Source: Antedon mediterranea
Lineage: Eukaryota; Animalia; Echinodermata
NCBI RefSeq assembly: GCF_964355755.1
Contig: NC_092674.1
Coordinates: 31,806,001-31,870,000 of the forward strand
Direction: 5' to 3'
Length of the DNA stretch: 64,000 nucleotides
A program made the translations under genes and the position numbers. The notes beneath the pieces are model-generated. The model ran no database searches. It had not been told where the DNA came from and saw nothing but the letters and a program-made list of their open reading frames with translations. Of the stretch, positions 1-53,001 are shown one piece after another. Position 1 is the first letter of the stretch. Each line of letters starts with the position of its first letter.

Positions 1-55
1 CCGCGTAATCGAGTGATTTGTGTATTTTTAAACAAAAAATGCATCAACTTTACAG

Positions 56-8100: not shown

Positions 8101-10002
8101 CTGCAGCGCATCAGTGTATATAACAGCTTTTAATCCTCCGACGACCGTGTAGATAGCTGTTAAAAATAGCAGAAGACAAACGGACAAATAAAGTGGCCAT
8201 CCAAGCACTTGTTGTATTATTATTGCACCTGCATACATCTCACTCTGAAAGATCAATATAAATAGTAAGTACCAGTTTTTAATGGTTACATATTAGTTTT
8301 TGCATTTTAAAAATGTTGATTTATTTAGACAATTTTAACCTAATAAGAGATGTGAGCACTGCCATTCTTGTGTTTAGTGAGATATTTATTAAAGAATGCA
8401 TGACGACACGGCACAGCTTGCTAAGGCCCATGTGAATGGTATTAGTGGTATAAAGTTGAATTGATATTAAGATAAATATTTACCGATATAGATCCTATGA
8501 CGATCAAAATTAGTGATACCACGGCAATGTACATGCGCACACGGTTTCCGCCGTATCGTTTCTTCAAATATTCAGGCATAGTGTAAGCCTATATGGAATA
8601 AAGCCGTATGAACCATATGTAGTTTCAAACAATGAAACACACTATCATGATACATTGAGTGACACGTTATAATGGAATAATTAGGCGTATGTATGATTGG
8701 GATTAGAAACTTTAACGATGACTTCAAGAAGTAAATTAGATCTATAACGAATGACTACAATAAACAATACAAATAATTAATATTGAAATATTAAGAGATT
8801 TTTTAATCGCTAGTAATGACATTTTTTATTTTAAATATTTATGAACCATAATTTTAAGATTGTATTTTATTAATCATTGTTGTCCTATTTTATTTTGATA
8901 TTGTTATACTACATTTTTATACTATATTTTTATATCTGATTTTGTGAAGTGAACAATGCAATTTCAGGTTTTTTTAAACAATTTATCTGTATCTGTATCA
9001 AACATTGTAATTTACGTTAAACCAATCTAAAACGTGCTTTGTATTTTTGGGTCAAAAGTTGTTACTGAGTCAGCAACAACATCATCGACATTATATATTT
9101 ACCCCGGAAGACAAGTAAACTGGTGTGAACACAAATCCAAGTAGAGCTAAACACATAACACCCTGAAACAAAAGTAACCAAGCATTATTTAGTCTATATA
9201 ATGAAAATTGTTGTCTAATAGAATATATGAGTTAAGTGTGCAAAAGAAAGAAAGCATGACTTACTGAAAATTCGTAAGAAACAACAGCATAACCATTTGC
9301 CGCCGCTGTGCTTGCTAAACCGATAAACGACCCACTACCGATGTTACTTACATATATAGACATACCAACCTAATAGAAAACAACATATGAACATTTTTCT
9401 TCCTTATCAATACTTTTACAGAGTACAGTAAAACTTTAATGCGTGGTTACAAATTTGACCACATTGTCTTTAGAGTTTTACAAGGTGCATAAATTAAAAA
9501 TGTATAGCTGCTAAACAACTTACCAGCCACCAACTCATGTCTCTTCCTGCTAGAAAATATCCAGATGCGCTTCCCTTGTTTGATCCCCATGTTGACTATG
9601 GAAAAAACACTATACTTTTGGTTATAATTCTTATCCTTTCCTGTTGGTTTAGGTTTTATTATTAACATTATAAGCTGTAATTAAAGCTATAATTATTTTT
9701 TTTAAACATGCATATTTATCCACAATCAGGAAAAAAAATTGATTACATTGAGATTTTATCTTAGATACGAAAAATCGAAAAAAAAAACCAAGTTTTTGTA
9801 TATATAATATAATATAATAAATAAATGTATTTACTAATTCCCTAGCTCTTCCAAAATCCAGCTGGAATATACCCTCTTTTCATGCAAAACATACACAAAC
9901 TGTACAGTAGGACTGCAATTCACTTACCCAAATACCAATTCCAAACACAACGCAGAAATGAAGAACAATTATAACAATATCAATCGGATTAAGGTAACCC
10001 AT
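5142..10002 (-). CDS. SLC5 family sodium/glucose-type cotransporter (SGLT-like), about 660 aa, 14 exons
   Basis: Exons in transcription order: 10002-9928, 9595-9524 ([12 protein letters not shown]), 9369-9265 (SNIGSG), 9162-9103, 8588-8484 ([12 protein letters not shown]), 8244-8058 ([13 protein letters not shown]), 7885-7674 (LPWPG..CTNQ), 7464-7329 ([11 protein letters not shown]), 6996-6889, 6791-6641 ([24 protein letters not shown]), 6474-6306, 6044-5829, 5661-5478, 5344-5142; GT-AG and frame-consistent (1983 nt). The last junction is the least certain; the paralogue cannot be assigned by eye. Confidence 0.93.
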
Positions 10003-11079
10003 TTTCAAAATTAAAGATAGAAATAAAAATTAGTAGAAACAAGATCTGTTTTCTAGTATGCCTTTATTGGGCACAGTAGGTGTTCTCTGCAGATCCAACA
10101 AGTTGTTGACACAGACACTTTGCTATCAGAATAATCAAGATAACTTTGGGCTGAATCTCGACTTTTGCCCCCAATTACCATTTAATATTCATAATGTAGA
10201 CAAAACATGTTCTATTAACATCCTACAAGTTAGAGAGTTGCTTTTGTTAACTTATTATCCTCCAGATCATATGTTTCATAAATTAGGCCTACGGATCTTG
10301 TGATTTATTATTGGTTCAATCAATATATCAGTATACATTCCTCATCTTCTTGTCAGGTTGTCATTATGTCAATTCACGGTTATAAGTAGCAATGGGCATA
10401 TCGTGAGAGATAACCGGCGTTTGTCAGTCAAAATTGTGAGCTGATCTTGCTTCTCAGGTCAAAGGAGAAACACACCCAACGTGTACGGCCAAGGGTCAAA
10501 TCAAGATAGTTCTTTAATGTTTTAAAATTACCTTGTTGAGGTACAAGCTTATTGGATGTTTTCGAACACAGTGCACTCATAATTGTCGTTTTTTATTTTG
10601 ACTAATGTGTAAGGTCTTTGTAAATAACGTTTTGATAATGTTTTATAGTCAATAATAGGTTAATAGATACATAATAAGAATGTTTCGAAACTGGCCACTG
10701 TTTTCTTTGGCAACATATCTTTTCATCTGCTCGTCTTTGGAATGATTTGCTACTAAAGAGGCAACATCAATCGATATTTTCTTATTTTGATAGGATAGGA
10801 TAGACAGATTCCTTTTCACGCGAAAGCATTCTGTCATTCCGGCAAGCTTTCATATGGGAGCTTCAAAGTAATGGAGCGGTGTGTAAATGATTCCTCTGCT
10901 TCATCACCTTTTTTTTGTGGGTTATCTTAGGATTCTTTATGGATTAATATTAGGGTGGATGAAAATCACTTATTTTTATTTCTTTTTAAAAGTAAGACAT
11001 AAGTCAATTTTAATATCACTTTGTAAAGTTATAAAGTTATTTGTTATTATAAAGTTGAACATTTTATTTCTGAACTGGC

Positions 11080-11790
11080 TTATTGTAATTGGCGTGAAGT
11101 GTATGATACCAATGATACAACATACAGCCTATAATCATTTTAATGATATATTTCTGAATGTTTGTGATAAACATGCCCCAATTACAACGCAAAATCCAAA
11201 GAAACAGCATGTGGATAAACCTTGGCTTTCCAAAGCAATCAAGACAAGCATAAACAAAAAAGAACAAATGTACTCAAAGTGTATAAAAAGAAATGTTAAT
11301 CCAGAGATATTTTCACGCTATAAGAAGTACAGAAATATATTAACAAGTGTAATCAGAAAGGCTAAAAAAATATATTACGGTAAAAATATGGAACTATATA
11401 AACATGCTAATTAAAGGATCTAACTCTAATGATCACGGAAATCCTCTCGATACACTCAGAGGAGTCTATGACATGGGTGAACAATAAGTAACGGTCCAGA
11501 AAATTGTGCTTCAACTTTCAATAATTATTTTGTTAATATAGGGCCAAATTTAGCCAGCAAAATTAATGAAAACTCGTCACCACCTTCTGATTATTTACAA
11601 AATCCCATAACGCCTTCTTTTTTCTTGAAACCAATTACACATTATGAAATTGAAAATCTAATTAAAAATATAGATACAGGTATAAAGAAGTCATCTGGTT
11701 ATGATTACATGTCTGGTCGTCTAGTCAAAGACTCTGCTTCCCATATTAGTAGACCACTTGAGCATGTATTTAATTTATCATTTATTAAGT
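11080..11790 (+). mobile_element. Decayed L2/CR1-group LINE fragment A (pre-RT region)
   Basis: ORF pieces CDKHAP..KPWLSKAIKTSINKK..YKKYRNILTSVIRKAKK and KPITHYEIENLIKN..SSGYD..ISRPLEHVFNLS with stops/frameshifts; boundaries approximate. Confidence 0.8.
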
Positions 11791-13947
11791 TCAATATCAA
11801 GGCCACCTGGCGTGTCATCAATTCTCTTCTTAAGTCAAATAAAAACGCACCTACCGATATTGAACTTTTAGCTGATGGAAAATTAATAAAAGAACCTTTA
11901 ATAGTAGCAAATCTATTCAATGACCACTTTACAAATATTGGACCCAACCTTGCTTGAAAAATAAACAATGACTCTGATAAAACTTTTCATCACTTCTTAC
12001 ATCCCCCTATTCCTAACTCAATTTTTCTTTCACCTGTAACCGAACAAGAAGTGCACAAAATCACAAATTCATTTAAAAGCAACAAGTTATTAAAAAATCC
12101 ATTGACACTATTCTCTCTCCTCTCACTTACATTTTTAATTTATCTCTTACATCTGGTGTTTTTCCCAACTCCCTAAAAATTGGTAAAGTTATTCCAATTT
12201 TCAAGAAAGGTAGCAAGTCCGATCCAAATAACTATCGTCCAATCTCCGGCCATCCTTCCCTTTTTTTCAAAGATTCTTGAAAAGATTATTTATAACCGCG
12301 TCTATGATTTTATAAGCAAGCACAATATTCTTTATAATAAACAATTCGGATTTAGGAAAAACTATTCTACGTCTTTTGCGCTAATTGATTTAACCAACAA
12401 CATTATTGATGCAATTCAAAACAATTCTTTTCCCTCTGGCTTGTTTATTGACCTGTCGAAAGCTTTTGATACTATTGACCATCATATTCTGATTACTAAA
12501 CTTTCAAATTATGGTATCCGTGGTGTTGCTCTTAAACTTTTAAACAATTACTTATCAAATAGATTTCAATCTACTTCTGTTAACAATCATACCTCTGATC
12601 TTAAGCCCATTACCTGTGGTGTTCCCCAAGGGTCCTTGCTTGGCCCTCTTTTATTTCTAATTTACATCAATGATTTACCAAACGCCTCAGATATCCTTAC
12701 CTTTTATCTTTATGCAGATGACACGACTTTATTTTATAAAAGTGTTAACTTTCAATCAATTTTTCATACTTTTAACCAAGAATTAATTAATATTAACGAT
12801 TATTTTAATGTGAATAAACTTTCAATAAACCTAAGTAAATGCAACTTTATGTTGTTTGGAATACGTCATCAAAAACTGACCGACGAGTCTCATAAAATTC
12901 TGATTGGTGATCAAGTAATCCCCCATGTTAAGCAAACCAAATTTCTAGGTGTTTTAATTGACCAAGAGCTAAATTTTAAAAATCATATAAAAGAAATTGA
13001 ATTAAAAATTTCTAAAAACATTGGCATACTTTATCGTCTGTCTTCCTTTTTACCGTCTCAAATTTTACGCAATATTTACTTTTCCTTTATTCTGCCTTTT
13101 ATTAGTTACTGTAACATTGTATGGGCCAATAATTACCCTTCAAATCTTAATAAAATACACGTCCTTCAAAAGAAAGCTGTTCGTCTTATCTCGGGTAACT
13201 CGTCTTGCTCATACTAATATCCTTTTTTATAACCTTAAACTCTTAACTGTGCACGATATTAATAAACTCCAACAATGCATTTTCGTTTATGAACATATTA
13301 ATTCCAAACTGCCTTCTAACTTTTCCTGTAATTTTTTAACTAACTCTGAAATCCATTCGTATAACACAAGAGCATCACGGGACCTTCATCTTCCTCAACC
13401 TAAACTAACTAAAATGAAACATAACATTCGCTATATAATAGTGGTTCTAAACTATTCAATAATCTACCTCCCGAAATTTCATCATCGTCTTCTAGCAAAA
13501 TGTTCTCTTTTAAACTTAAAGAATATCTTATTTCAAATTATAACTAATTGTTTTCTCTATTTTGTAATATTTTTTTAACTTTAGAAACTTTTTCGAAATT
13601 GCTTCCTTTACTGTTGGTGTGTGTGTGTGTGTCTGTTGATCTTTATGTGTTTGTGTAGTTATATGTTTACATTTATATATATAAGTATATAATCTCCTTA
13701 CATCCCATGGCTTCCCAACATACAAGTTTCAATTTGATTTTTTTTTTCCAATTGATCGATACTTTCTTGGGTTTTTTTGCCTCTTTCATTTTGTATATAA
13801 CTGAATCATCTTTTTATACATTATGATTTACTGTATTATATCTCTAAAAAAATATATATATATTTATTTATAAAATATCAGAAATTATAATGTTTTTTAC
13901 TCAAATATGAATGAAAGAAATAAATGTTTATTTGAATTTGAATTTGA
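11791..13947 (+). mobile_element. 5'-truncated L2/CR1-group (Crack/Daphne-like) LINE B with reverse transcriptase domain, frameshifted
   Basis: ORF 12180-13217 has QFGFR, FIDLSKAFDTIDH, GVPQGSLLGPLLF, YADDT, KFLGV; 3' end has AATAAA and TTTGAA repeats at about 13919-13947. Confidence 0.92.
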
Positions 13948-14200
13948 GGTAAAGTCACTATTGGAATCTTCATTGACATGGCAAAGGCATTTGATACAAT
14001 TGATCATAATATTTTACTTAACAAACTTCATCACTACGGGATAAAAGGAATTTGCCTGGATTGGTTTAAAAGTTATCTAACAAACAGGAAACAGTTTGTA
14101 AATTATGGTGGATGCAACTCCACCGAAGAACGTATTACACATGGTGTGCCTCAGGGCTCTGTCCTGGGACCAAAACTTTTTCTTTTGTTTATAAATGACT
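13948..14200 (+). mobile_element. LINE RT fragment (probable continuation of fragment A)
   Basis: GKVTIGIFIDMAKAFDTIDH..GVPQGSVLGPKLFLLFIND, truncated by the tRNA-like tandem array. Confidence 0.85.
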
Positions 14201-14413
14201 CGAATTAATGTTCATTGCCTAATGTGTTTATATATATAAAAGTATCTCTTCGGAGATCCCGCCTCGTGTATAAAAATACTGAAAGATGAGGGCGTATCAA
14301 TTTGATCTCTGGTGCGCGTGCGTACAACTGAGGACTAGTGCTGTTCCGCCGTACCACCACGCCGAGAATGTTAAAGAGTCGCTATCCAATCGAGTTTGAA
14401 CAATACCATGAAA

Positions 14414-20798: not shown

Positions 20799-22166
20799 AT
20801 GATTCCACTTCCAAGGACTGGTATCCGAAACAGGAATGGTCTTATCATTGCTGGTTTTATTGGCTTCATTGGCGTAGCTCTCTATCCTATTATTGTTCAG
20901 CCATATTTCGATCCTAAACCTTGGCGTAAGTTAGTCATTTTATAATCTTCGGCCCATTCAATTCTTGTAGACTTGACACTGTAATTATCCATGAGGCACT
21001 TGCTACTGGTGGTAACATAATCATGAATGCTTTCTTGCAGAACATACACAAAATGAGGCAAGGAAGGATATAAAACAAGAAGATATTCAACCAGGAGGTA
21101 TGTATTGTACACTAAATGCTCCATAAATGTTTTAATTTCTAAATGTCTTAAATTGTAATGATATCTCTGTTGTGAAGTTAAGTTAATGTTGTGCCATAAT
21201 AGACACGTTTTGCGCTCGCGAGGTCACCGTCAGTTTGACCTTTTAGTGGGTATACAATGGTAAACAAACACAGCGAGAGTTATGTTAAAGCATGGGAGAA
21301 CTGAGAGATGATCATCTTAAAAAGCAATCGTCAAAACTAGCCTTTGATGGAATGGCATGGTAAGGATGTTATTTATTTTCTAAACTTATGTTTTATATTC
21401 ACTGTAGAATTATTTGGGCATTTGGTTCGGAATTATCGACTTTATTTATGTATTGTCATTTTTGGTTTAACACTTAAGTATTACGGTGCATTTAATACAT
21501 GTTAACTGTTGATTTTATTTACAAATGTTGCGTAAATATATTAATTATTATCTTTCATTCTTCTTCATGCTCCTATTGCATCTTCCATGTATTATGTGAT
21601 GTTCTTCGGCGCTTAAACAGACACCCAAGGCTCCTAGGCCTAGTAGACGAAGTACCGCATCAGGCAACGCCACCGGGCGGGCGGAGAGGCACGAGCACAT
21701 CGTGGACGTACCTTTCCTTGAAAAATTTCCAAGATTTTGCGCCACTATCCTTCGGAGCTGACGCAAACCACTCAGCAAGTGTTTGAAAATTAAAAACAGG
21801 AATATTATTCAGTGATTTTGTGTAGTTAAATTAACGATTTATCCAACATATACAACATTTATGATGCACCTTGCAACAAAAGCACTCGGCAGTCGCCATT
21901 TCGCTATGCTTCAACACGCACTAGGCGAGAGGTGTTCGGTTTGTTTACAAATCTATACCCACAATTTCTGATTGGTCGCGAGCGCGAAACGTGTCTATTG
22001 AGCTAACAAATTCTGTATTGTAAGTATGTTGTTGGCAATTATTTCACTTATCATATCTTCATTTTAGTCAATTTTAAGTTCTCTATGGATTTATTTTTTT
22101 CCTACTTTAGGAATGAGAGTTTGGAGCGATCCCTTTTCACCAAGAAAAGACATTCCACAGAAATGA
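20799..22166 (+). CDS. SMIM20: Small integral membrane protein 20 (MITRAC7 / phoenixin precursor) orthologue, 79 aa
   Basis: Exons 20799-20925, 21041-21097, 22111-22166 (GT-AG, 240 nt) give MIPLPRTGIRNRNGLIIAGFIGFIGVALYPIIVQPYFDPKPWQHTQNEARKDIKQEDIQPGGMRVWSDPFSPRKDIPQK; carries the SMIM20 hallmarks GF..IG.A.YPI and QED.QP.G..VWSDPF. Confidence 0.93.
21201..21996. mobile_element. ISL2EU-like internally deleted TIR element in a SMIM20 intron
   Basis: TIRs AGACACGTTTTGCGCTCGCGA / TCGCGAGCGCGAAACGTGTCT flanked by AT on both sides; minus-strand coding remnant KSWKFFKERYVHDV..HGRCNRSMKKNE. Superfamily assignment tentative. Confidence 0.7.
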
Positions 22167-23400: not shown

Positions 23401-23730
23401 TACACCACCATTAAACAATATCATGCAATATTGCTATTCATTTAAGATTCTTTCATGGCTATAGACAATTGAATAATATTCCACAGAACACAAAATAAAT
23501 ATTTATGTTGTTGTGGAATAAAACATAATAATCATTTGATTGATTCACACATTTAGGTAGATAGATTATTACACTTTGCATACAAAGTAAAATATAAGAG
23601 GTATATCTATTAGAAATAATGTTTTTATTAAATGCCATCATATTATAATTTATTATTTGTTTATTGATATACCTGAACATTTATTTATTTACACATTACA
23701 CTAAGGCCATGGTTAAAAAAGTTTTTGCTG

Positions 23731-24215
23731 TGCACCAGGGGCTATAGGACCTTTCTAGTGCATCAGTAACTATCAGACTTTCTGTAGTAGTGCACCAGGG
23801 GCTATAGGACCTTTCTAGTGCATCAGTAACTATATGACTTTCTGTAGTAGTGCACCAGTGGCTATAGGACCTTTCTAGTGCATCAGTAACTATATGACTT
23901 TCTGTAGTAGTGCACCAGGGGCTATAGGACCTTTCTAGTGCATCAGTAACTATATGACTTTCTGTAGTAGTGCACCAGTGGCTATAGAACCTTTCTAGTG
24001 CATCAGTAACTATATGACTTTCTGTAGTAGTGCACCAGTGGCTATAGAACCTTTCTAGTGCATCAGTAACTATATGACTTTCTGTAGTAGTGCACCAGTG
24101 GCTATAGAACCTTTCTAGTGTATCAGTAACTATCAGACTTTCTGTAGTAGTGCACCAGTGGCTATAGAACCTTTCTAGTGCATCAGTAAACTATCAGACT
24201 TTCTGTAGTCAGTGC
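23731..24215. repeat. 60-bp minisatellite, about 8 copies
   Basis: Unit TGCACCAGKGGCTATAGRACCTTTCTAGTGCATCAGTAACTATMWGACTTTCTGTAGTAG in register with the 60-nt lines. Confidence 0.97.
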
Positions 24216-24622
24216 TTATTCATCTAGTTGTACAACAGTGACAAGATTTTTTCTGCAATATTATGTAAAATTATTATATTATTTTTCTTTCATTATGCAG
24301 TTAGGCCTAGGCTATCCATCATTTCAGTTCTTCAGTGCACCTATAGGCCACCTATAGTGCACCATACAACAAAGTGACTATCTTTCCTGCAATCAGTTGC
24401 AATGACACCATATTTTGTGCGAGCAAGCTTTCAATGCTCTAAATCACATTTCTAAGTTATTTATTCCAAAACTTATTGCTATTTTAAAATTGCTTTTTTT
24501 TTTCTAATTTAATACATTTATAACCAACGTGGTCGTGTATAGTTTATTTATAAAGCCAAACACTATTGTAAACTACTGCAACTATGTTTCTTATTGTTGG
24601 AAGTATGAACTATATGGTAGTA

Positions 24623-27600
24623 TCATTTTAATAGGAGATAAAATGACCAGTACATTATATTAAATGTAATAAAGATGCAAGGAAAGAGTATCCTTGCCCA
24701 TTTATCAATGATATTAACATCTTTTATACCCGGAACCCTTATTCTTGGTCTCCGTTTATTTCTTTTTATAGGATTATTTATTTTTCTTGGACAATATACA
24801 ATGTTGTGGTTGGTCCGTCGACCATCAAGGCTTGTTTTGCGTCGATGTTTTAGGCCTAGTGTCGGTGTTCTACTTGGACCATCAAGTCCATTTAAGGTGT
24901 CCACATGAAATCCGGATTCCTCTTCTTCATCTTGCTGCTGTGAAAGACGTTTTCCTACACTTTGATTGGTCGGTATCTGTTGGGATAAAATGTTACGTCA
25001 TTCAGAAATAATTTGTTTTAATTAATTCTTAATTGTTCTTATCATAGTAACGAATGTTGTTTATTAAGTTTCTTTTTTTAATCTTTGTCTTTTTATTTAT
25101 TACTGTTTTTGTCTTGTTATGTATAGTGATAGGTTCCCGACACACCATTTTAAACTAGTGGGCACATAGTTAGTTATTTCTACTCTAGGCTAAATATTAC
25201 ATCATTTACATGCAAGTCGATCGCCATCATTTATTTGAATCTATTTATCTACACACATTTCTCATCTCCACATCGGTAATTTATTGTATTGTATTAGTAA
25301 AATTTCTAAAAAAATACTTGCTTCTGTATAATAACTATAATAGGTCGATCTTGGATTGGGTAAAATCTTTGTCTTCTCTTGTTGTTTTTTCTTTTTTTGT
25401 AGTGACCAATAACTAAAGTTGACAAGCGCGTATTCTAGGAGGGCAGCAAAGACAAAAGCGAAGCACGTGACCAGATAGATATCTATGGCTTTGATATATG
25501 AAATTCTTGGAAGTGTCTGACGGACGCTGATTGTTGTCATTGTTAATACAGTTGTGATACCTACAAAGATAAATGTTACAGATATCAAATATGTAGTTAT
25601 AATTCCACAAATATTATTGTTTAGAATACTTACAAACTGGCAATGTTGAGATCAGATTAATGTATCTAGAACAATAATATGGTTTACCCTTGATTTTAAG
25701 ATATTTTCAGGAAAGTAATATATAAGTTAGCGTTCAATAATAATTCTGTCAAAATGTCTAGTCTAGGCAATTAGCCATAATAATCGTAAACTAATTATTT
25801 AATTAAGATTATTCTTGTCATATATTTTTCCAATAATGTTTTATAAATAATATTTCTGATTGAGAAATTTACAAAATGTGTAAATATCTTTCTTGGTTTC
25901 ACTGAAGTGTACTTACTATTCCACACAAATTGTGAACGTTCATAATTATTAAGAAACATTTTCACCCAATACTCGGTGTATGTATACTTACTATTCCTCA
26001 CATTGTGAACGTTAATAATTATTAAGAAACATCTTCACCCAATACTCGGTGTATGTATACTTACTATTCCCCACACATTGTCAACGTTCATAATTATTAA
26101 GAAACATCTTCACCCAATACTCGGTGTAAGCACATGCACGAAACCATTTTTTGACTTTGCCAAATGATTATTTCATGCACTTCTGGTTAATATGAAGAAG
26201 CTCTGAAGTGTGTGGGTTAAGCTTAGATTAATGAAATAATGTGAAATTTTAATAGTTCCTTTTAGAAGATTTACCTACCATAGCATATTATGTAACAATA
26301 ATTACATAATGTTACATAGAAAGCTTTATAGTTTTACAAATCTAAAAGAAACATTTTTTAAAAAGAAAGTTTTAGTGATATGATGTTAGCCATGTTATTT
26401 AGTAATATTTTACCGAAATGAATCATTGTTGAGTTCATCCTTTGAAATAAAAACCAAAGCATTATCTGCATACTGTAGGCCTATGTTAACCCATTTAAAA
26501 ATCAAAATGACAGATAAATTGTGAATTAGTTAGCAAACTGTGCCACCACTTTAAATTAGTTATCGCGTATCCTTCAAGATATCAAAAATATCATTCAGAT
26601 TTATATTTTGATATAGTTAAATTATATATTTGCATAATTTATTTTACTAGATGATATATACTTGTATCTATGCTACGTGCTCTGGTCTTCACTTCATAAT
26701 GTTAAATAATAAGGATGTTAAAGATGAGTTTGCCTACTGAAATGTAATAGAACAAACACGCAACAGATAACACACATCTAAACAGATGAATAAGAATCAA
26801 TTGTTATTTAAATTTAGTATGAACCCCGCTACAAAATAAACATGATGCTGTTTCTTCATAAAATGGTGTATGACCTAATAAGCTCATGCAGCTGAGTGGT
26901 ACCGTTAGATTGCGCTTACCGAGGGCAACTCTAGCTGAGGTGGCTTCGTGGTTAATCCAAAAAGCAACCCACGACAATATGACGATCAGATTCGATGGAA
27001 GAAACGTTTGAAGGATGAAAAAACTTATATTTCTGCGCATCCGAAAAATTAAAGACAGGCGGGGGTACTGACCTGGATTTTGAAAGAAAAAAATATCTGT
27101 AACTTCATAAAACAAATGTTAACGACGATTCACCCGATCGTGTTACACCATTTTGATTTAAATATTAAAAACATTTTGGATTGCACGTGCGCGCCACAAA
27201 CGTAATTTAGCACTGACAACGCCATTTCAGCATTTCGCGACTTTACAACAAAAATATTTAATGAGTGTAACTCTTAGAAGGTGAATCGTCACAGCAATGT
27301 GTCGTCCTTACCAAGGGCAACCCTAGCGGCCGTAGCCTCATGGTTGATCCAGAATGCGACCCACGATAAGATTACAATCAGAGTACATGGTAGAAATGTT
27401 TGCAGTGCATGAGAGCCTATGTTACGACGCATCTGAAACGCTATGCTCAAACGCGAGTAATCACCTGAAAAGAGAGGTCAACCACTAATAACTTAACATG
27501 TTAACATTTTAATTTAACTCGCCTCTGAGTGTATCAATATACAAATTAATAATTTATAAAATTATATATAATCCGTATGTTGTGGAACACTGGTTTCGAG

Positions 27601-30600
27601 GGTTATTCTTTAATTCATTTAGTAAATACTATATTGACAATATGTTACTATACCTGTAGAAAAGTTTTGAACCTTAGCTTGAACACTATAATCAACTAAC
27701 GTAAACTGAGCCATGTCAATGTTCTCTGTACCTTCAATAGAGTTGTCACCGTACTCCCACCGATACATTATGTCTTCTGTTGTATACCCATCTAATACCA
27801 TAAAGAACAATGTATTCTTATCAATCAATCTAATTTCAAACTCTTTTCTTAAGGACCCCATTGGAAATAAGTCCTATAACTAGGACTTTCATGGGCTTTC
27901 CTTGCATCTCTAAATCTGATTTTTTATTTTACTTATTTAAATTGTATTATTAAAGATTTAGGCCTATTGTCCCTTGGAACACAGAAAAATGAAGGTCAAA
28001 ATATTCTAAATTTAAATTGGCCATATCAAAGTAATATTAAAGTTATTCACTTTAAGTCCAAAAACAACAAGTTTACGTAAGTAACAGGTAAATTAGTTTG
28101 ATTACATTTCGTCTGAAAAATCGTCGCGAGCTAAACTAAACAAAAATTTCAAACCACGAGTATGCATTATGCATATGCTAATTTGGATTGTTTACAACTC
28201 GTCACTGTTGAGAATGTGTTTTCACACAGATCGCGAGGGATTTATGATTTTATGATTATGCATACAGAGTAGCCAAACAAGCACGTTCCCATTATGGAAC
28301 ATGTTTTGATCGAAAACTTTGACTGGAAGTCAAAGTTATTTTTTGAACAAAAAAACGTCTGTGTTTTAGTTAAATGATTTTTTTTGGACTAATTTTTGGT
28401 GAAAGTTAATAACTATTATGAAACTTCAAAATGACCCACCCAGGGACAATACATCTTTAAATTGTAGTTAAGTACAAATAAAAGAGATTCAGTCAAAAAA
28501 GAATTTTAATAACAATGAAGGAACATTTTAAAAATGATTGTAATTATGTATGATATGTTTTTAGTAGACTAACTTTTAACTTGAATTTAATGTGTAATTA
28601 TGTATTTTCCCATGTCATGTATTTTGAGATGCAAATAAAACAAACCAAACTAAACCAAAACTGTGGTTGAAACAATTACAATTACAGAATTACTGTACTA
28701 ACAATTTATTTGTCGAAAACAAAATACAAAGATGGGCTTATGTTTAAATCTTGATGACTACCAAAAATCAGGTCAATCACTACATCAAGTCGAGTTTTCA
28801 AATCATTTTATAATCCTTCACATATACTTGCTTTTATATTTGTAACATGTGAACAACATTATTTACTTTATGATCTCAAACGTCATTGTCCAGTTAATTT
28901 GCTATTCCTTTCATCGTGTTTATATCAATACTTTCGTCCAAGCTTTTAGATAAAGATTAATTTAATTTGAAAATTATAAAATAATAGAATACTTTATGAT
29001 AGTTATAGTTTTAAAACATTTTATAAAATTAGAAAGCATCGCATTTGTAACGTGATTGCCTAAAGTCATCTCGTTTGAAAAACAACCATAATGTATGTCA
29101 TGTTGTGATTATGCGAACACTATAATAATAATACTTTTTATTTATCCTCCTAATACATTAAGTATGTCAGTTATTTTCTTAGAATCCATTACTTGACGTA
29201 ATGGATGAATGGATATGATATTGCATTCAGATTCAATAATCTTAACAATAGGTATACTTACAACTTTCAATTTCTAACGTACAGTTTTGTTCATCCATTG
29301 GATAATGTTGTAAGTCCATCATACACGATGCCACTGTTGTAATCCTAAAATAATCATATATATTAATGAATTAAATTACACAAATGTGACGCAACCATGA
29401 ATCATGTATCGATTGTCTTAACCAGGTGGAACATTCAGAAATCAGCTTATCATATGCATGTGGACTTTTTTGACATTCAATTAATCAATTATAAATTGTT
29501 CCATATAGGAAATGTAAAGACCGACCACTACGATAAAAAGCAATTGAACCGTTAGAAACATTCTCACATTAGTCATTAGATAGTAATTCTACATTGAACA
29601 GCATGTTAACATTTGGTTACTTAGTTTATTATAGACCATAGGAAAGGTAAAGACCGACCACTACGATAATAAAGCAATTGAACCGTTAGAAACATTCTCA
29701 CATTAGTCATTAGATAGTAATTCTACATTGAACAGCATGTTAACATTTGGTTACTTAGTTTATTATAGACCATAGGAAAGGTAAAGACCGACCACTACGA
29801 TAATAAAGCAATTGAACCGTTAGAAACATTCTCACATTAGTCATTAGATAGTAATTCTACATTGAACAGCATGTTAACATTTGGTTACTTAGTTTATTAT
29901 AGACCATAGGAAAGGTAAAGACCGACCACTACGATAATAAAGCAATTGAACCGTTAGAAACATTCTCACATTAGTCATTAGATATAGTAATTCTACATTG
30001 AACAGCATGTTAACATTTGGTTACTTAGTTTATTATAGACCATAGGAAAGGTAAAGACCGACCACTACGATAATAAAGCAATTGAACCGTTAGAAACATT
30101 CTAACACTCTCTTTCTCTGGAAACGTTTTCTGTCATTCCGACACGCTTTCCACGATTTGTTTCTATATTTCTCTGTTTTGGGCAGGATGGTTTGTTATTT
30201 TGATAATGGAGGTATAAAACTAATTTTATACCTCCATGTTGTAATAAGGTCTATATTTTTTATCTGGTTCATCCAGTTTTCTTTGGTAACCCTGGCGGTT
30301 TTTTTACTTTCTTTTCAGTTTCCTTCATTGCTTGTTTAATTGGCGTATCGTCTGGCGTATAGTATAATTATATGGCCATATAGTCCGGTGGCAGGAGGGG
30401 GGAATCACCACCCGAAAGGGGACAAATTGCCATCCAACTTTTCTAGACTAGAATTTTCCGTAGATTACGAATATGGAAGGTAATCGATCAGGATAGGAAG
30501 CGTTTTCGAGATATAAGGGGTCAAAGTTCAAAATTGACCAATTACAACAATGTATTATGTATATGTATTATAACAAATTTATTATGATGATTATAAGTGT

Positions 30601-33600: not shown

Positions 33601-36600
33601 TCAAGCAATATCAACTGTTATACTGAATATAAATGTATATCTTGGGAACAATTTGCTCCTATTTTTAATTCTCTCCGACCTGCCGTTACTTAGATATAGC
33701 AAAAAGAGGTCAAAGGTCAAAATTGCTAACAATGGGGTTTCCGGTCAATTTTTCAAAGAAAGTTCTGTTAGAGCTAATATAAACATATACATTGTGAACA
33801 ATTTGACACCAAAATTATCTCACTACGTCCAGAATTTCCAGAGATATAGCATGTTTTTATATTGGTCAATTTTGAACTTTGACCCCTTATATCTCGAAAA
33901 CGCTTCCTATCCTGATCGATTACCTTCCATATTCGTAATCTACGGAAAATTCTGGTCTAGAAAAGTTGGATGGCAATTTGTCCCCTTTCTGGTGGTGATA
34001 TCCCCCCTCCTGCCACCGGACTAATACCATTTTAATCTTCTTCGATTAATTCTTTTACTCTATTCTTCTTGTCTAATTGTGTGTCATTAGATATATTAAT
34101 TCTACATTGATCAGCTTTTGGCTACTCGGTTATACCAATACAAGATACAACCTCAAATTTGACACAAACACAAAACATGCAAGTATAATAATACCTATAG
34201 TAATACCTTAACCCATATAAAATTGTTCCATCGTAATGTAGCCGAATGAGGCGGTTTTTAACCGTTATATCATGCACGAAAGACCTTTTGTCATTTACAA
34301 AGTATGTATCTGGAACCCATATATTATCTGCTTGTCTTCCATCCAGGGATATGTTGCCGAGCTCTTTTGTGTATTGTAGTCGTTTGTCTTGCCAGTACTG
34401 TCGGAAGTACATTGTGATTGTATATTCCTGTAAAAACAAAATATAACAAAATATAATTATGGTATTACTATGCAGTAGTAGTTTTATTAATTTTATTTAA
34501 CCTTGTTTTATAGTATTAAAGGTGACCCAGAATAAAGCACAGCAAAATTACAGAAAAATACAGACAAAATTATACTATAGTATAATAACAATGTTAAAAC
34601 AATAAAGATTTCAGGGTATGAACATGTTATTTATTGTAGGGAAACAAAATAAATATGGTATTTAAGTTATTATTTATGTATTTTAGGTACCGTACTGCCT
34701 CTGGACGATCTGGAGCTCGTGGGTTCTAGTTATCAAGTTAGTGAGTGGGAATTACGCCAGAGTATAGGGCAAAACAGCAATTACTATCGCTCCATTTATA
34801 TTAATGAATACGTACCTCTATTTACATTTATTCAGTTAAGTATGTTTTTCATTATCCAAAATTATCTGTTATGTTAATTTTCCTTGTTGTGAATAATAAT
34901 GAATATGGTATTATTTCATGGTTATATACAAGGTAGTCGGCAATATAACTACAATTAAAAAAATTAATGTATGTACGGTATTCAAGGATCAATATTTTTA
35001 ATTTGATATGTCTTGAACTGACAACATCGGGTAGCCTTACAGATTCTAAGGTTATAGTTTCATGTAACGCGACGCAAGTATAATTACGAAGATTCTCTCT
35101 GATTTGTTATTAATAACGTTATACTGTACATAATGCAGAAACGATGAAACTATCGTTCTTACCTCTAGTCACGTGCCTATGGGCGGCATAGATAACACAG
35201 CTTAATATCACAGCGAAATACATTGGAAACAATATCTAATTCATATTGGTATGCAAATTCCGTTGATAGTACATCTTATCGGGTAATTATATGTAACCAA
35301 TTATTCACCAAATCGATTATATTCAATTAAGTGCAGGATACTATAATCACTCCTAATGGTAATTTACTTGAATTGGTATCTACAATGAAAACCGCACCCT
35401 TACATCTCAATATTATTTAAATATTGGGCCACCCATCTTATGTAAACACGTGCTTTATGTAGTTCTATCAAAAATATCGATCTTTCACCCGATTCTTACG
35501 GTCATATCATCAGCAGATTCTTAAACAACGATTGCGATTATGTCATTTTTATGCTAAATATAAATGATTTAAAGGTGTATTATCCCCTAAAATCAAGAAA
35601 AATGAAGATTATTAAAATCAAACTTTGAATAGGCCATTTTGTAGTTTTAACAAAAGTAATTACTTCCGTAGAAAAAAGATATTTTCTTATAAAATGACAA
35701 AATAAATGGTCTAAATTCAACCAAAAACCTATTGGCTGGCAGCCAATTTTTCAGGTAAATAATTTTTTTTTCAATCCCATTTTTGGTCAAAGTGGATAAC
35801 TATTATGTGACATTAAAATGGTATATTCAACAACAAATATGTAGGCTAAAAAATTATTTTTCAGGGGGACAATACATATTTAAAACAAAAGTTTCTACTT
35901 ATATTTAAAAATTAAAAAAAACCAAATATAAAACGTCATGTGGCTCCAACATAAGGAATGGACATGAACTAATTATTAAAAAAAATAATTGGCAGAAGCC
36001 CTTTCGCAACACACAAATATTTGAGCCGATTTACAAGATGTTGCGGTAAAGACAAGATATTACCCGGGGCATGTTTGTACGAGAGCTGTAACTACAATTT
36101 AACCGATGCAATATTAAGCCTGTATTGGGTTTCAAATCAATCGAAATGTTCTTCTAACGAAATACCGCTGGCGATAGTTGAGATGATCATACTTAGGTAT
36201 ATATTGCTCGAACAATTTTGGTTGATAAAATGTTGAATAGTTACTATCCTTATACGAACATGTCGATGTATTTTTCTATTCAATATAGCATGTTATACGT
36301 ATAGTTATAATGATGATTAATGATAATTATGATAGGTATTATTACCGTCATGGTTATCATCTAAATAATTTAACACTACCACCTATGTCTTAATAGTGTA
36401 GGCTGGTATGTCGTTTATATGAATGTCGTGTATATTTTTTGTTAAAAGCAAACTTTGACTTTATTTCATATCTTGATAATATAAGGAATGAAAAAAAATA
36501 TGTTGCCATTTTTTCAAAAGACATTTAAAGGACCAAATTCAAGATGGCCACCAACATTCAAATAACCCTATTAAAAATCAGAATATCACCAATAATACAT

Positions 36601-39600: not shown

Positions 39601-41107
39601 ATTTTATGTGATTTCAATCAACGTCATAGCTTGCACATGTTTTAATAAGAAATTTAATCCATTTTTAAAAAATGGCGGCCATTTTGAAATTCAAAATGTC
39701 AGAATACTAATGAATATAGGTTTATAATAATTCTTATATAGCAGAGAACCCATATGAACTTAAAATATTATTCATAATGGGTGTTACTTTGTCCAATATG
39801 GTACATTTATTGGATATTTTACGTATTGGCGGCCATCTTGGATTTGACACCCTTAAGCTTTTTTAAAAAAATGGCAACATATTTTTTTCATTACTTTACA
39901 TCCTAAAGACACTAAATCAGCTGGAATTTTGCTTTTAACAAAAAAATGACACGAAATTACATAGTGGCCTACACTATAAGCCTATATTGTTGGTTGAGAA
40001 TTACTATAACTTCACTTTGTACTCAAACACATTTGTAGGCCTATTATAAAAAAACAGCAGTTCACTCATTTTGAATAAAGAGTATTAAACGATAAATTAA
40101 TTAAACTAATCATGTCTCGCTTGTAATTGATAATTATTATAAAGGCGTGATATGACTAAATGACTCTGACTGAAGTGTCTCGTTACGGTACGTCGAAGAA
40201 AATAATTAACACAAATTGGATTGCATGTGTATAAGAATAAAATGTATTACCATATTGACTTCAGAGAAGCTATTGATACTGGCTATTTCCATATCGACGC
40301 CAACCATAACCGCAGGACCTGTAAATAGATAATAATCTATTATTTCATTAGAAAATCTTCAGAAAATTATGAATCTTCTTCCGCTGAATTTCTAATAGTG
40401 GATTTAATAAATTTGTCTACTTATCTACATAAACAACGAAAATCAGCATGTGAGTATCGGCATTGCCTGATAAAGATAAAAAATCCCTTTTTCAAATCAT
40501 CAATCCTGCACTGATCTTTATTCAATAATATCAGAGAAACACAATTTAGGATTTAGCTAAAATAGTATAATTATTTATGTCAATATTAATATTAAAGTTA
40601 AGCTAATTTTTTTTCAAACTTTGGCTGGTTCCTTGAGATGTTTAAATATGTTATTACTGTCTTCTAGTGAATTTAAATTAATTACAATCGATCATAATTG
40701 TCAGCAACATTATGTAATAAATGGTTCAACTTGGAACCATTTTATATATACGTCTTTTAGTTAATTGCTTTCCAAGATCCAATGTAAAAATACAATATAT
40801 AATTATTTTAGTTGAGATTATAGGCCTATGCGTTTATGTGGTTTTCATGTCTTGATTTTATCTTGCCCGAGTCATGATTTTATTTTAGGTGGGTTAAATT
40901 ATGATTTTTATAAGATAACCGATCAGTTAATTGTATTTGAATAATAATAATAATACTGTTTGAGATGTTTATCAATATATTTTGATATTATTTATATATT
41001 TATATATATAAACAAATCAGGCACAGAACATTAATTCTAAACCGCCCGGTGATATACTGAAATTTAATTAATTAATTTGAAACGATAAAGATGATGAAAT
41101 CTGTGAG

Positions 41108-47100: not shown

Positions 47101-48770
47101 AAGCACCAGATCTATTTGAGTTGTAGTCATGCTATAGCGTTATAACAAACGCCAGTCTATGTTTTAGTAGAGCACCAGATCTATTTGAGTTATAGTCATG
47201 CTATAGCGTTATAACAAACGCCAGTCTATGTTTCAGTAAAGCACCAGATCTATTTGAGTTATAGTCATGTTATAGCGTTATAACAAACGCCAGTCTATGT
47301 TTCAGTAAAGCACCAGATCTATTTGAGTTATAGTCATGCTATAGCGTTATAACACACGCTAGTCTATGTTTCAGTAAAGCACCAGATCTATTTGAGTTAT
47401 AGTCATGCTATAGCGTTATAAACAAACGCCAGTCTATATTTCAGTAAAGCACCAGATCTATTTGAGTTGTAGTCATGCTATAGCGTTATAACAAACGCCA
47501 GTCTATGTTTCAGTAGAGCACCAGATCTATTTGAGTTGTAGTCATGCTATAGCGTTATAACAAACGCCAGTCTATGTTTCAGTAGAGCACCAGATCTATT
47601 TGAGTTGTAGTCATGCTATAGCGTTATAACACACGCCAGTCTATGTTTTAGTAAAGCACAGAATCTATTTGAGTTATGCGTAAGGGTTAGCGTTATCATA
47701 AACAAAATGAGCAAACGCTATATACGCTACAGTCTGTTTTTGCAGTAAATCACCAGAGCCTTTAAAATGCATACCGAATTTTATTGGCAAGAGAATTACT
47801 ACCATTGTATACGGTTGCTATAGATACCTTTGTGCTTTAAAAATATAAGTAAACGATACAAATTATTGTGTAATTTATATTGTAAATATTGGTATAATAA
47901 TAATACAAATGCATTATAAACTAATAATCTTGATTAGTTTATAGAATGCTCGAAGCATTTATTCTACAAGTGCACTGTCATTGTTATCTTTATCTTCGAC
48001 CTAAAACCATAAACTTGGCCATTAGAAATAGAAAAGAAAAACTTCTCCAAAAGCAGAATCCCCATATCTTAATTAATACAAACTGGTTCACACAACACAC
48101 GAACACACACACACACAACTGTATTCACTCTATATAAACTTAAATTAAACATTTAACAAAAAATAAAATAAATGTTAGCTTTGAATTGAATCAATCGAGT
48201 TGAATTTATAACCAACTGTATTTTCTCTGTTTTAACATGATGTTATATAAAATGACATTTTATTCAGAAAAAAGTTAAAAAATTAATTTTAGCCAATTAC
48301 ATGACTAATAATCACTTTGCAAGTTATTGACTTGGTAATTAGAGTGATTATTTTCTTTAAAAGTAATGTTCTACAATATTTGATAGTGGTGGAACTTTTA
48401 GCACATGTCGGTGATGAATAATTAATAACTGTACTATTGTTGTGTAATTAATGGATGATTGATTAGTGAAAGTAATTAATTATACACAATAACCATATAG
48501 AACGCCGGTGTATTGTAAAGGCCAATTTAGTTAGACAGACGAGCGGTAACGGTAAGCGGAAAACTTCGTAGCTTGACCACGTAAGAATCTGACCTATCCT
48601 TAGCGGAAACCACCAGTCCGCTCCGATTTGTGTGTAAATGGTAATTCGTGTCCGAAATAGAGCGTTAGCTGTCAAGAAGATTTCTGTCATAAGTATTTTT
48701 GTACCTCAATATATGCAATAGTTACAATGTCTTGGCATGACAATTGATATAATGTTGAAGGGGAACGTGA

Positions 48771-51800: not shown

Positions 51801-53001
51801 AAAGAGAACGAATTTTAAACTGCCCGGTGATAATCGGTCCATCAAAGTTATTTAAGCAATACCGTATATAGAACGATATTAGCGAGTCAAATTGCCAGAA
51901 GCGATTAAACAGTGGTCGAGGGGCGCGTTTACCGTACCTAAATAACCGGCAAAAGCACTGGTCGAGGGGCGCCGTTTACCGTACCTAAATAGCCAGTCGA
52001 ATTGCCAGAAGCGGTTAAAGCACTGGTCGAGGGGCGCGCCGTTTACCGTACCTGAATAGCCGGCAAAAGCACTGGTCGAGGGGCGCCGTTTACCGTACCT
52101 AAATAGCCGATTCAAATTGCCAGAAGCGGTTAAAGCACTGGTCGAGGGGCGCCGTTTACCGTACCTAAATAGCCGGCAAAAGCACTGGTCGAGGGGCGCA
52201 GATTAACGTACTTAAATAGCCGGCAATATGGGCATGGGTTCGAGACCGACCCGCTTCTCCTTTTTCTGATGGTGAAACAAGTCTTTTCGTCTACGGATAT
52301 AAACCGATGTCCAGTGTTACACAGTGTACTCGACAGTGTGCACTTTAAGAACCCAGTTCATCTTTCGATCAACACAAACGATAATTTACTCTTACAATCC
52401 TTGGCCACATGTGCATAAAGACATACAAAATAAGATGAGGAAATCTGTGAGAATGAGAGAAGCCGCCCCAACCAAAATTCCAACTCAGAACCTTCTGTAG
52501 TATGCACATGTCTTTAACCATTTTATAATATTGAAAAGCAGAAACACTAAAACCAATGCAGCCAAGACCACGCAGAATAAATGTCATATTTAACCAGAGC
52601 GACCTTGACCTAGACTCTTCGTCCAGTCAACATTAATAATTTGGTGTATCAAAAACGTTTGACAAATCAAGCGCTAAATCTAACTATTACTAATCTCGAT
52701 AAAAATAATATTTGTGAAAAGTAGCCAACTTACCTCCGAAATCTGGTCTCAGCCTAATGTCGTAGCCCTTCATTAGATGTGTAATGTTAACGATTTTGCG
52801 ACCATTGCCAACATCTACCGTACTGAGCGCACTGTGGAGAATATCATTCGCAAAATAAATGTTGTTTCACGAAAATACTAAAACAGTTAACTGTAGCATT
52901 AAAAATGTAATATTAGGCCACATTCATAAATTATGTTACCTAGTTTGTAATATATGAGCGCTCAATGTATATATAAACATCATATGATTCGCTAACCACA
53001 T
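24623..53001 (-). CDS. Lcch3/GABRB-like: GABA-A receptor beta / Lcch3-like Cys-loop ligand-gated anion channel subunit, about 471 aa per isoform
   Basis: Exons: 53001-52940 (putative signal peptide), 52831-52734 ([13 protein letters not shown]), 40318-40251 (68 bp, [12 protein letters not shown]), 34427-34207 (221 bp, [11 protein letters not shown]), 29344-29262 (83 bp, Cys loop [15 protein letters not shown]), 27791-27654 (138 bp), alternative 27464-27312 or 27072-26920 (153 bp), 25560-25322 ([22 protein letters not shown]), 24976-24623 ([16 protein letters not shown]). 1416 nt in frame; 68/221/83/138/153 exon sizes are the known GABA-A pattern; [14 protein letters not shown] is Lcch3-like. 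First exon is less certain. Confidence 0.95.
25910..26128. repeat. About 80-bp tandem repeat, about 2.7 copies
   Basis: Repeated TACTTACTATTCC..TTGTGAACGTTCATAATTATTAAGAAACAT..CACCCAATACTCGGTGTA. Confidence 0.9.
26920..27072 (-). CDS. Alternative M1-coding exon 7b of the GABA-A beta-like gene
   Basis: 153 bp, CCAG acceptor, GTAAGC donor; [50 protein letters not shown]. Confidence 0.93.
27124..27290 (-). promoter_or_regulatory. Intronic stem-loop between the duplicated exons (candidate splicing-regulatory RNA structure)
   Basis: Nested complementary blocks GACGATTCACC 27124-27134 / GGTGAATCGTC 27280-27290; GTTACAC 27142-27148 / GTGTAAC 27265-27271; CATT 27149-27152 / AATG 27260-27263; AAATATT 27160-27166 / AATATTT 27253-27259. 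Confidence 0.7.
27312..27464 (-). CDS. Alternative M1-coding exon 7a of the GABA-A beta-like gene (not in ORF track)
   Basis: 153 bp, CTCTCTTTTCAG acceptor, GTAAGG donor; [50 protein letters not shown]. Confidence 0.9.
27954..28456. mobile_element. Kolobok-like MITE (TTAA TSD)
   Basis: TTAA flanks, termini AGAT..TATTGTCCCT / AGGGACAATACATCT; paralogous to 42276-42828 over most of its length. Confidence 0.8.
29503..30103. repeat. About 134-bp tandem repeat, about 4.5 copies
   Basis: AAAGACCGACCACTACGATAA recurs with 133-136 bp spacing. Confidence 0.95.
30105..34085 (-). mobile_element. RTE-like LINE 3' remnant split by an Academ-like insertion (pieces about 34085-34024 and 30380-30105)
   Basis: Removing 30381-34023 plus one TSD restores [36 protein letters not shown] on the minus strand. 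Confidence 0.65.
30381..34023. mobile_element. Academ-like non-autonomous DNA transposon (3.6 kb) in a receptor intron
   Basis: About 160-bp near-perfect TIRs TAGTCCGGTGGCAGGAGGGGG..; 3-bp TSD ATA (30378-30380, 34024-34026); internal roughly 155-bp tandem repeats at about 32095-32860. Confidence 0.9.
35573..35879. mobile_element. Kolobok-like MITE (TTAA TSD)
   Basis: TTAA-AGGTGTATTATCCCCT..AGGGGGACAATACATAT-TTAA. Confidence 0.7.
36394..39976 (+). mobile_element. Old Academ-like DNA transposon with decayed transposase-like remnants
   Basis: Termini TAGTGTAGGC..GCCTACACTA, 3-bp TSD TAA (36391-36393, 39977-39979), degenerate TIRs with AAAATGGCGGCC/GGCCATCTTG motifs; broken plus-strand peptides [38 protein letters not shown] at about 38850-39140. 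Confidence 0.75.
41001..41175 (-). repeat. Fragment of the tRNA-array unit 3' end flanked by (TA)n, including a long TA microsatellite (41109-41175)
   Basis: AGAACATTAATTCTAAACCGCCCGGTGATATACTGAAATTTAATTAATTAATTTGAAACGATAAAGATGA matches the reverse complement of the 14200-15515 units. Confidence 0.88.
42276..42828. mobile_element. Kolobok-like MITE (TTAA TSD)
   Basis: TTAA-AGATGTATTGTCCCTT..AAGGGACAATACATCT-TTAA, perfect terminal inversion. Confidence 0.85.
44046..44256. repeat. 35-bp minisatellite, about 6 copies
   Basis: Unit AAACAATATACTAGTAAACACAATGTGTAATCTTA. Confidence 0.95.
46489..47677. repeat. 69-bp minisatellite, about 17 copies
   Basis: Unit TCTATTTGAGTTRTAGTCATGCTATAGCGTTATAACAAACGCYAGTCTATGTTTCAGTARAGCACCAGA. 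Confidence 0.97.
48849..49988. mobile_element. MULE-like non-autonomous TIR element, copy 2 (inverted relative to copy 1)
   Basis: Near-identical reverse complement of 3944-5084 (same 94-aa ORF in the track); 9-bp TSD AGCCGGGCC (48840-48848, 49989-49997). Confidence 0.92.
51885..52225. repeat. GC-rich compound tandem repeat (about 47- and 61-bp subunits)
   Basis: Six copies of GGTCGAGGGGCGC..TTACCGTACCTAAATAGCC with alternating linkers. Confidence 0.9.
52235..52368 (+). mobile_element. Degenerate tRNA-derived SINE (same core as 23093-23400)
   Basis: GGGTTCGAGACC B box, GGATATAAACCGATGTCCAGTGT..GTGCACTTTAAGAACCCAGTTCATCTTTCGA. Confidence 0.65.

Follow-up and report, generated by a model that had tools for sequence, protein, structure and literature searches.

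A tandem pair of loop C-M1 exons, likely used one or the other, in a GABA-A beta/LCCH3-like receptor gene of feather stars

We found that the minus strand of the 64,000-nt stretch of Antedon mediterranea DNA analysed here (hereafter the window) carries a GABA-A beta/LCCH3-like gene of nine exons, running from 53001 to 24623, in which either of two exons, 7A or 7B, serves as the seventh. Exon 1 (52940..53001) contains the start codon and the signal peptide and is followed by exons 2 (52734..52831), 3 (40251..40318) and 4 (34207..34427), by exon 5 with the Cys loop (29262..29344), and by the constitutive exon 6 (27654..27791), which ends in loop C. Next come exon 7A (27312..27464), encoding the end of loop C, beta10, the pre-M1 segment, M1 and the start of M2, an intron of 239 nt (27073..27311), and exon 7B (26920..27072), the paralogue of 7A. 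The shared exon 8 (25322..25560), which has a GC donor, provides M2-M3, and exon 9 (24623..24976) encodes the intracellular loop, M4 and the stop codon. The nine-exon reconstruction from the window equals, letter for letter, the A. mediterranea RefSeq isoforms X1 (with 7B) and X2 (with 7A), both of 471 residues; exon A was matched to XP_071951888.1 (isoform X2), and its cluster mate XP_071951887.1 (isoform X1) has exon B. These RefSeq isoforms are automatic models, and full-length forms are on record for Antedon only.

The encoded protein retains the architecture of Cys-loop channels, i.e., a C-x13-C loop and four membrane helices (Pfam PF02931, PF02932), and scores 454–459 bits against TIGR00860 (cut-off 280). 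Searched with phmmer against PDB, it matched beta3 with 508 bits, delta with 356, rho1 with 350, gamma2 with 301 and glycine alpha with 296, and the top Foldseek matches were beta3 as well. The GABA-A beta/Lcch3-like identity proposed in a sequence-only reading, made earlier by a model from the letters of this DNA, thus holds. Residues E155, Y157, F200, T202, Y205 and R207, which we take to be the principal-face GABA residues, are aligned and identical in both isoforms, and the start of M2 carries Ala at -1', Arg at 0' and Thr at 13', presumably an anion-type signature. Judged by its sequence, the crinoid gene is that of a GABA-A beta/LCCH3-type subunit, for which gating by GABA with partner subunits is predicted. 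The exon tree described below held a single non-beta row, and the placement among beta subunits rests on the phmmer scores, not on that tree. M2-M4 are well conserved in the gene.

Exons 7A and 7B correspond to mature positions 204-253 of human beta3 and lie at a spacing of 392 nt. As the sequence-only reading had described them (27464-27312 and 27072-26920), they are 153 nt each, in phase 1/1, both open and provided with good splice sites, with canonical AG/GT ends: the acceptors of 7A and 7B read ...CTTTTCAG and ...AAATCCAG, and the donors GTAAGG and GTAAGC, respectively. The two copies differ at 12 of 50 residues and are identical at 104 of 153 nucleotides (68%). Our recount returned the same 12 residues, and also the same 12 codon differences among the 17 identical residues that had been named; across the entire exon, different codons encode 23 of the 38 identical residues. 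Four-fold sites differ at 11 of 17 positions. The suggested dN/dS-type comparison, carried out by NG86, gave a pS of 0.82 (saturated) and a pN of 0.17 (Fisher p 8e-12), which, with the preservation of both copies in a second crinoid, Anneissia, bears out the proposed old duplication with purifying selection. Both exons lie, without a single changed letter, on single contigs from sequencing runs X2, X3 and X5; the contig of run X4 differs by 2 letters over a longer span, and that of run X1, from another sample, shows 3 differences, all intronic; altogether, run X1 has 12 variants in 3251 nt, none of them within A or B. Since synonymous sites are saturated and single contigs span both exons, the duplication is real and old. 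We conclude that the loop C-M1 exon is duplicated in tandem, with both copies evidently under purifying selection. No further duplicated exon was found in the 64-kb window by tblastn with the full protein.

Both exons proved intact in a relative, Anneissia japonica, in which the A-type (model X1) and B-type (model X2) exons are identical to those of Antedon at 48/50 and 49/50 residues, respectively. Across the two crinoids, A-type and B-type exons differ at 11–13 of 50 positions, and the shared extracellular part differs at 4 of 191 between Antedon and Anneissia. Both Anneissia models stop inside the intron after the M1 exon, and their tails match the Antedon intron behind the same exon with scores of 25.5 and 21.5 (0 of 300 shuffles each), as opposed to 0 and 9.0 in swapped pairings; these matches are also the best among 20 real GGTAAG sites in the window. 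From these tails, the first 50 nt of both introns after 7A and 7B look conserved. In an exon tree of 50 columns, the A pair is supported by 99/99 and the B pair by 97/98, with branch lengths of 0.58 for A and 0.32 for B; the tree does not place A and B as sisters and leaves the relation between them open. Two proteins without the start motif, from Holothuria and Nymphon, were omitted from the extracellular tree.

As for other deuterostomes, we compared annotated isoforms, as distinct from scanning genomes, and detected no alternative M1 exon among those of Acanthaster (3), Strongylocentrotus (5), Diadema (2), Apostichopus (2), Holothuria (1), Ptychodera (2), Saccoglossus (1) and Glandiceps (1). 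Many beta-like metagenome loci also contain this 153-nt phase-1 exon; the test for it flagged 31 of 58 loci, of which at least 3 (L004, L031, L032) are false, M2 following there without an intron. A second exon copy was present in none of the 41 beta-like loci, 28 of them with at least 600 nt on both sides, and the second matches seen in 2 of the 58 loci turned out to be a partial, broken copy in a receptor outside the beta class and an exon split by an intron. Crinoid DNA was absent among these 58 loci (best identity 76%). Exons A and B share F226 and A239, neither of which appears in 30 distinct non-crinoid segments (12 from vertebrates and 18 from invertebrates; 149 of 156 non-crinoid proteins entered the column profile, as the remaining ones gave no single clean 50-residue segment), which suggests a duplication on the crinoid line. 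Its date is soft, given the tree and the presence of F226 in 4/41 and A239 in 1/41 beta-like metagenome loci. The duplication would have taken place among crinoids before Antedon and Anneissia separated, and the loop C-M1 cassette is probably crinoid-specific.

Among the 30 non-crinoid segments, G219, F221 and Y226 are invariant and position 220 is always Y or F. Exon 7A replaces Y220, F221 and I222 by S, H and A, and exon 7B carries G219S; S206, A211, S220, H221 and A222 of A, as well as Q204 and S219 of B, were unseen in these segments. All of the listed A and B residues are the same in Antedon and Anneissia, except for position 204 of A. Y205 and R207 are retained in both forms. The difference at M2 -2' pointed out earlier is likewise there, with Ala in 7A and Ser in 7B; both occur naturally elsewhere, and T is found at position 230 in 6 of the 12 vertebrate segments, so that some of the 7A/7B differences may be silent.

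The M2 segment encoded by exon 8 is two residues short. The deletion, at about 15'-17', was found in 2 of 152 sequences, both from Antedon, but in none of another 125 representatives and none of 27 M2 matches from metagenomes; contigs of runs X1 and X5 agree with the window at this site and contain no insertion. No M2-M4 fragment of Anneissia was among the 150 matches listed in a search with the C-terminal 197 residues. On its M2 length, the subunit is a derived member of the GABA-A beta/LCCH3 type. This two-residue deletion and an intronic stem described below are additions to the sequence-only reading.

Equilibrium desensitisation of human beta3 is reduced by Y245H and S254F, two M1 variants at mature positions 220 and 229 (passages of PMC10766243); both positions are changed in exon A. 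A single cavity of human beta3 is lined by F221, Q224, T266 and H267, and the substitutions F221W and T266W increase spontaneous opening (PMC5050400, in part); protonation of H267 raises constitutive activity in a manner non-additive with F221W (an excerpt of PMC13151983). The M2 gap adjoins the F221 cavity, which therefore has both swapped and deleted residues at its edge. By analogy with these human beta3 mutants, we predict that the isoforms differ in gating: both would keep Y205 and R207 of the GABA site and remodel the pre-M1 segment and the top of M1 facing the shortened M2, and such remodelling would change open probability, desensitisation and the response to modulators. AlphaFold2 models of the two isoforms, built from 30-row alignments, gave no usable difference (pLDDT 63.5 and 65.8, and below 50 around the end of M2). 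The relevant passages of PMC10603993 report no effect of GABA on crinoid arm muscle.

Splicing was followed in contigs of the sequencing runs, none of which is recorded as RNA. Contigs of run X1 show joints 6-7A and 8-9 at the modelled sites, as well as the exon 5-6 junction, with the loose end of a contig equal to exon 5; contigs of the DNA run X5 show neither 6-7A nor 8-9. No 6-7B, 7A-8, 7B-8 or 7A-7B joint is among those listed for contigs of run X1, a single run in which assembly drops rare forms. One run X1 contig is unspliced through A, the intron and B and then for 820 nt more, and another runs from the intron into exon 8. Run X1 covers other introns too and therefore holds pre-mRNA or DNA; given this and the loss of rare forms from contigs, it neither shows nor excludes retention. 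Contig depth in this run is 10.8 on intron 6 and 52.5 across A-B, values that cannot rank gene parts. The Antedon RefSeq models contain all four single-exon junctions, of which the run contigs show only 6-7A; the junctions of 7B come from annotation, and, as its joints were not seen in contigs, the use of 7B rests on RefSeq models in two species and on conservation. The alternative use put forward as a candidate in the sequence-only reading is strengthened by the one-exon RefSeq models in two crinoids, the conservation of both copies between them and the 6-7A junction in run X1; 7A and 7B are likely spliced one or the other and would behave like a tandem mutually exclusive pair.

Both exons being 153 nt long, joining or skipping them keeps the frame, and exclusivity needs a steric or regulatory block. 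Exclusion through frame-shift and NMD is accordingly ruled out, as is U2-U12 incompatibility, since the donors GTATAG, GTAAGG and GTAAGC are all U2-type. Docking-site/selector pairing was sought in 15 region pairs against 30 shuffles each, and no shared docking site was found; only intron 6 with exon A beat all 30 shuffles. The yUnAy words 29 and 49 nt from the 7A donor both fall inside predicted stems, and five AGs follow yUnAy words before the acceptor, which speaks against classical steric exclusion in its linear form. The branch-point-like candidates in the A-B intron are TTAAC at 27119 (-47) and TTTAT at 27108 (-36), and the linear distance from the 7A donor to the branch is about 190 nt, as compared with a steric limit of less than 50 nt given in a passage of PMC5740500. 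Steric exclusion would therefore need a stem.

A stem of this kind is predicted in the A-B intron. Its 5' arm (27279..27292) starts 19 nt after the 7A donor and its 3' arm (27122..27135) ends 3 nt before TTAAC, so that the stem ends 3 and 14 nt before the branch-like words at 27119 and 27108. It consists of 11 Watson-Crick pairs plus G-U, with -20.4 kcal/mol and pair probabilities of 0.75–1.0 in two folding contexts, and a second helix (27271-27260 / 27142-27152) is nested inside it. None of 500 shuffles reached the stem energy and 9 of 500 the 11-pair run; the energy is reached by 4–5 of 267 real segments, mostly repeats or palindromes. The whole A-B intron folds no better than shuffles (z -0.9), and 36 of 100 shuffles contain as many confident pairs. 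The stem itself was selected from a scan in which a G-U-rich 19-pair stem elsewhere scored better. As for variation, the run X1 variant at 27251 breaks a predicted A-U pair of an inner helix. The similarity of the Anneissia tail falls after about 27260; the 5' arm lies within the echoed stretch, and the sole change forced there falls on a U-G edge pair. The stem would bring the 7A donor within about 22–37 nt of the 7B branch candidates, and, although we hold this to be less likely than not, the predicted stem is the foremost candidate for the block that would enforce exclusivity. What speaks against it is that bridging stems, according to parts of PMC11802352, as a rule favour splicing.

Three TGCATG words follow exon 7B in the same 1359-nt intron, one at 26885..26890 on the minus strand, 30 nt after the 7B donor, and two further ones beginning at 26179 and 26138. 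TGCATG is, as we assume, an RBFOX-type motif. These are 3 of the 10 sense copies in the gene (p about 0.01, post hoc), which also has 8 antisense copies; we regard the three as a lead for tissue-specific exon choice.

The loop C-M1 exon is duplicated and both copies are kept in two feather stars; we consider it probable that they are used exclusively, giving two 471-residue subunits with a predicted difference in gating and desensitisation. The contigs of run X1 also call to mind regulated intron retention, in which most transcripts would splice 6-7A and keep the following introns, full-length subunits would be rare, and the outcome would be RNA that is detained or destined for NMD, or else a short product made of the ligand-binding domain and M1. 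Such retention would agree with the 6-7A and 8-9 joints and the lack of any joint into exon 8 in this run, with the contig bridging A, the intron, B and the next intron, with both Anneissia models ending as they read into these introns, with the seemingly conserved first 50 nt of both, and with a read-through frame that stops 7 codons after A and 38 after B. Yet bridging is no proof, as contigs drop rare variants and run X1 covers other introns, and a break in the assembly may be what ends the Anneissia models; moreover, full-length X1 and X2 are in RefSeq for Antedon, M2-M4 are well conserved, and the conservation of two divergent M1 sequences would be left unexplained. We thus hold retention to be quite unlikely.

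That one exon is constitutive while the other is a minor variant, or gives a subunit that is non-gating, modulatory or dominant-negative in the manner of UNC-49A/C or AVR-14A, seems to us improbable, and it differs from exclusive use of two functional forms only in the role of the second isoform. The replacement of Y220, F221 and I222 by S, H and A in exon A and the longer branch of A (0.58 vs. 0.32) would suit it, as would precedents: several nematode cassette forms are non-functional alone (a section of PMC8841521), and use of alpha6 exon 8 is strongly skewed (PMC1919356, in part). However, 7A is the very copy seen spliced in run X1, and A is 96% identical between species, i.e., under constraint. 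Identical doubled M1 exons do appear in two fish gene models (P0017, P0023) and could suggest that the second crinoid exon, too, is an artefact of assembly or a neutral copy in decay, but the crinoid copies share only 68% of their letters, their synonymous sites are saturated, both lie together on single contigs from two samples, and both are conserved in Anneissia; this explanation is already refuted and has next to no probability. Returning to the duplicated and exclusively spliced exon, a bolder version of it, which we deem unlikely, has the gating cavity rebuilt: M2 shortened by two residues, two M1 cassettes fitted to it, and an intronic hairpin that hinders 7A-7B joining sterically. If true, histidine 221 of exon A would lie beside the site where the vertebrate H267 senses protons, and the gene would act as a switch, giving either a GABA-gated subunit or one that is active spontaneously or tuned by protons or zinc.

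Mutually exclusive exons are known from insect Rdl (3a/b and 6c/d) and glycine receptor alpha2 (3A/B), where they encode parts of the extracellular domain; like the crinoid pair, these are internal exclusive exons of anion-type subunits, but theirs are extracellular. The restriction of such switches to that domain, as stated in the sequence-only reading, turned out to be too narrow, as nAChR alpha6, unc-49 and avr-14 swap channel parts. In insect nAChR alpha6, exons 8a/8b/8c are mutually exclusive and cover TM2 and the TM2-TM3 loop (parts of PMC6393475, PMC8505678 and PMC1919356). From what these passages describe, alpha6 resembles the crinoid gene in having tandem internal exons in a Cys-loop subunit that encode part of the membrane domain and are each conserved across species; it is, in contrast, an insect cation channel that swaps TM2 and the TM2-TM3 loop rather than loop C-M1, and its variant use was shown by RT-PCR, whereas that of crinoid exon 7B is known from annotation.

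In nematodes, unc-49 (A/B/C) and avr-14 (A/B) combine one N-terminus with alternative C-terminal channel regions that differ in function, and UNC-49A/C and AVR-14A do not form homomeric channels (as related in portions of PMC8841521). As far as that account goes, they share with the crinoid gene the anion-type Cys-loop family, a common N-terminus and alternative copies that include M1, but they duplicate the whole C-terminal channel region as terminal cassettes, unlike the one internal 153-nt exon seen here. Terminal cassettes with duplicated M1-M4 and separate stops do not occur in the window, which holds single exons 8 and 9; UNC-49 is, moreover, related to RDL and not to beta/LCCH3. A fused three-cassette model, CBN-UNC-49, was met among the protein matches. 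The closest proteins, vertebrate GABA-A beta1-3 and invertebrate LCCH3, have a single M1 exon in all cases examined, and the portions of a mammalian review at hand list functional splice differences only for gamma2L/S (PMC8257536).

Mutually exclusive splicing guided by RNA structure operates in Dscam1, 14-3-3, Mhc and ATE1 (passages of PMC11802352), and, as in the systems outlined there, the two crinoid exons are separated by a short intron with a predicted stem close to splice signals. Unlike the Dscam type, no competing docking-site/selector pairing stood out in the crinoid gene. Intra-intron pairing of this kind is reportedly found in 14-3-3 of Lepidoptera. Within open-licence PubMed Central and bioRxiv, we found neither a beta subunit in which loop C-M1 alone forms a cassette, although exon catalogues in supplements could list one, nor a paper on these two Antedon isoforms, and the accessible parts of PMC11861897 contain nothing on this gene. 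Swapping of membrane segments by splicing is thus already known in the Cys-loop family, and the lone beta loop C-M1 cassette is a new form of it.

The cassette is real, conserved and already present, unremarked, in RefSeq. It provides two naturally occurring beta subunits whose only differences lie between loop C and M1, at sites that do not vary from rotifers to mammals and where human epilepsy variants change gating; both forms have the two-residue M2 deletion, which none of the other sequences examined shows. Expression of both forms would be a direct test of how the pre-M1 segment couples agonist binding to the pore, and the compact 239-nt intron offers a testbed for structure-based exclusion. 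For the ion channels at large, the crinoid pair adds a deuterostome case of convergent exon duplication.

The M2 segment of the receptor gene is encoded by exon 8 (25560-25322, M2 near 25520), which is shared by transcripts carrying either copy of the duplicated M1 exon. Compared with the 150 other motif-bearing sequences, this M2 is always shorter by two residues. Both the assembled run that shows splice joints (run X1) and the DNA run X5 agree with the window on this shorter M2. The following intron 8 (25321-24977) is of the GC-AG type and is spliced in run X1. We found that one contig of this run has a loose end within exon 8 (at 25401), which matches exactly a site 3.2 kb downstream (22139-22166) without GT-AG. 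The joining of 25401 to 22139-22166 is likely a template-switch product, which would hint at a receptor transcript extending to about 22140. Within the intron that follows exon B (the downstream copy of the M1 exon), the top score of the stem scan fell to a predicted 19-pair G-U-rich stem pairing 26696-26678 with 26461-26443.

As for the remaining content of the window, exon-like open stretches on the minus strand (5145-8300) resemble a symporter, presumably of the sodium-solute type (SLC5). On the plus strand, 1-3560 holds Gly-X-Y stretches, presumably collagen-like, and behind them a domain that contains cysteines. Broken reverse-transcriptase reading frames at 10887-14205 (plus strand) presumably belong to a LINE-type element. 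A 1.1-kb element is present in two inverted copies, 99% identical (3936-5080 and 48854-49996), one of which sits in intron 2 of the receptor gene. Tandem arrays were found at 59319-62000 (78-nt unit), 62520-64000 (about 72-nt unit), 46350-47824 (69-nt unit) and 23670-24249 (60-nt unit).

Two RDL-like models of Ixodes scapularis (P0163 and P0191) contain 2 or 3 tandem, slightly different M1-M3 blocks that differ at the 2' position (Ser or Ala), representing either tandem genes or alternative cassettes. In the fish beta2 models P0017 and P0023, the M1 exon or the M1-M3 block is doubled in identical copies, which are likely assembly or annotation artefacts. The metagenome locus L049, encoding a receptor of non-beta type, possesses a partial second M1 segment with a stop (3203-3280), 50 nt after the intact copy.

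Three hemichordates (protein models P0027, P0028 and P0130) share the same 14-residue insert within M2 relative to P0019, positioned at the joint of the M1 exon with the M2 exon; in Ptychodera, this insert is alternative between the annotated isoforms X1 and X2. This may reflect conserved alternative splicing by which the pore helix is disrupted or changed. Models of Acanthaster (P0134, P0135) and Strongylocentrotus (P0024, P0136) bear inserts in loop C, at the exon 6-7 junction; thus, both ends of the M1 exon are variable across ambulacrarian annotations.
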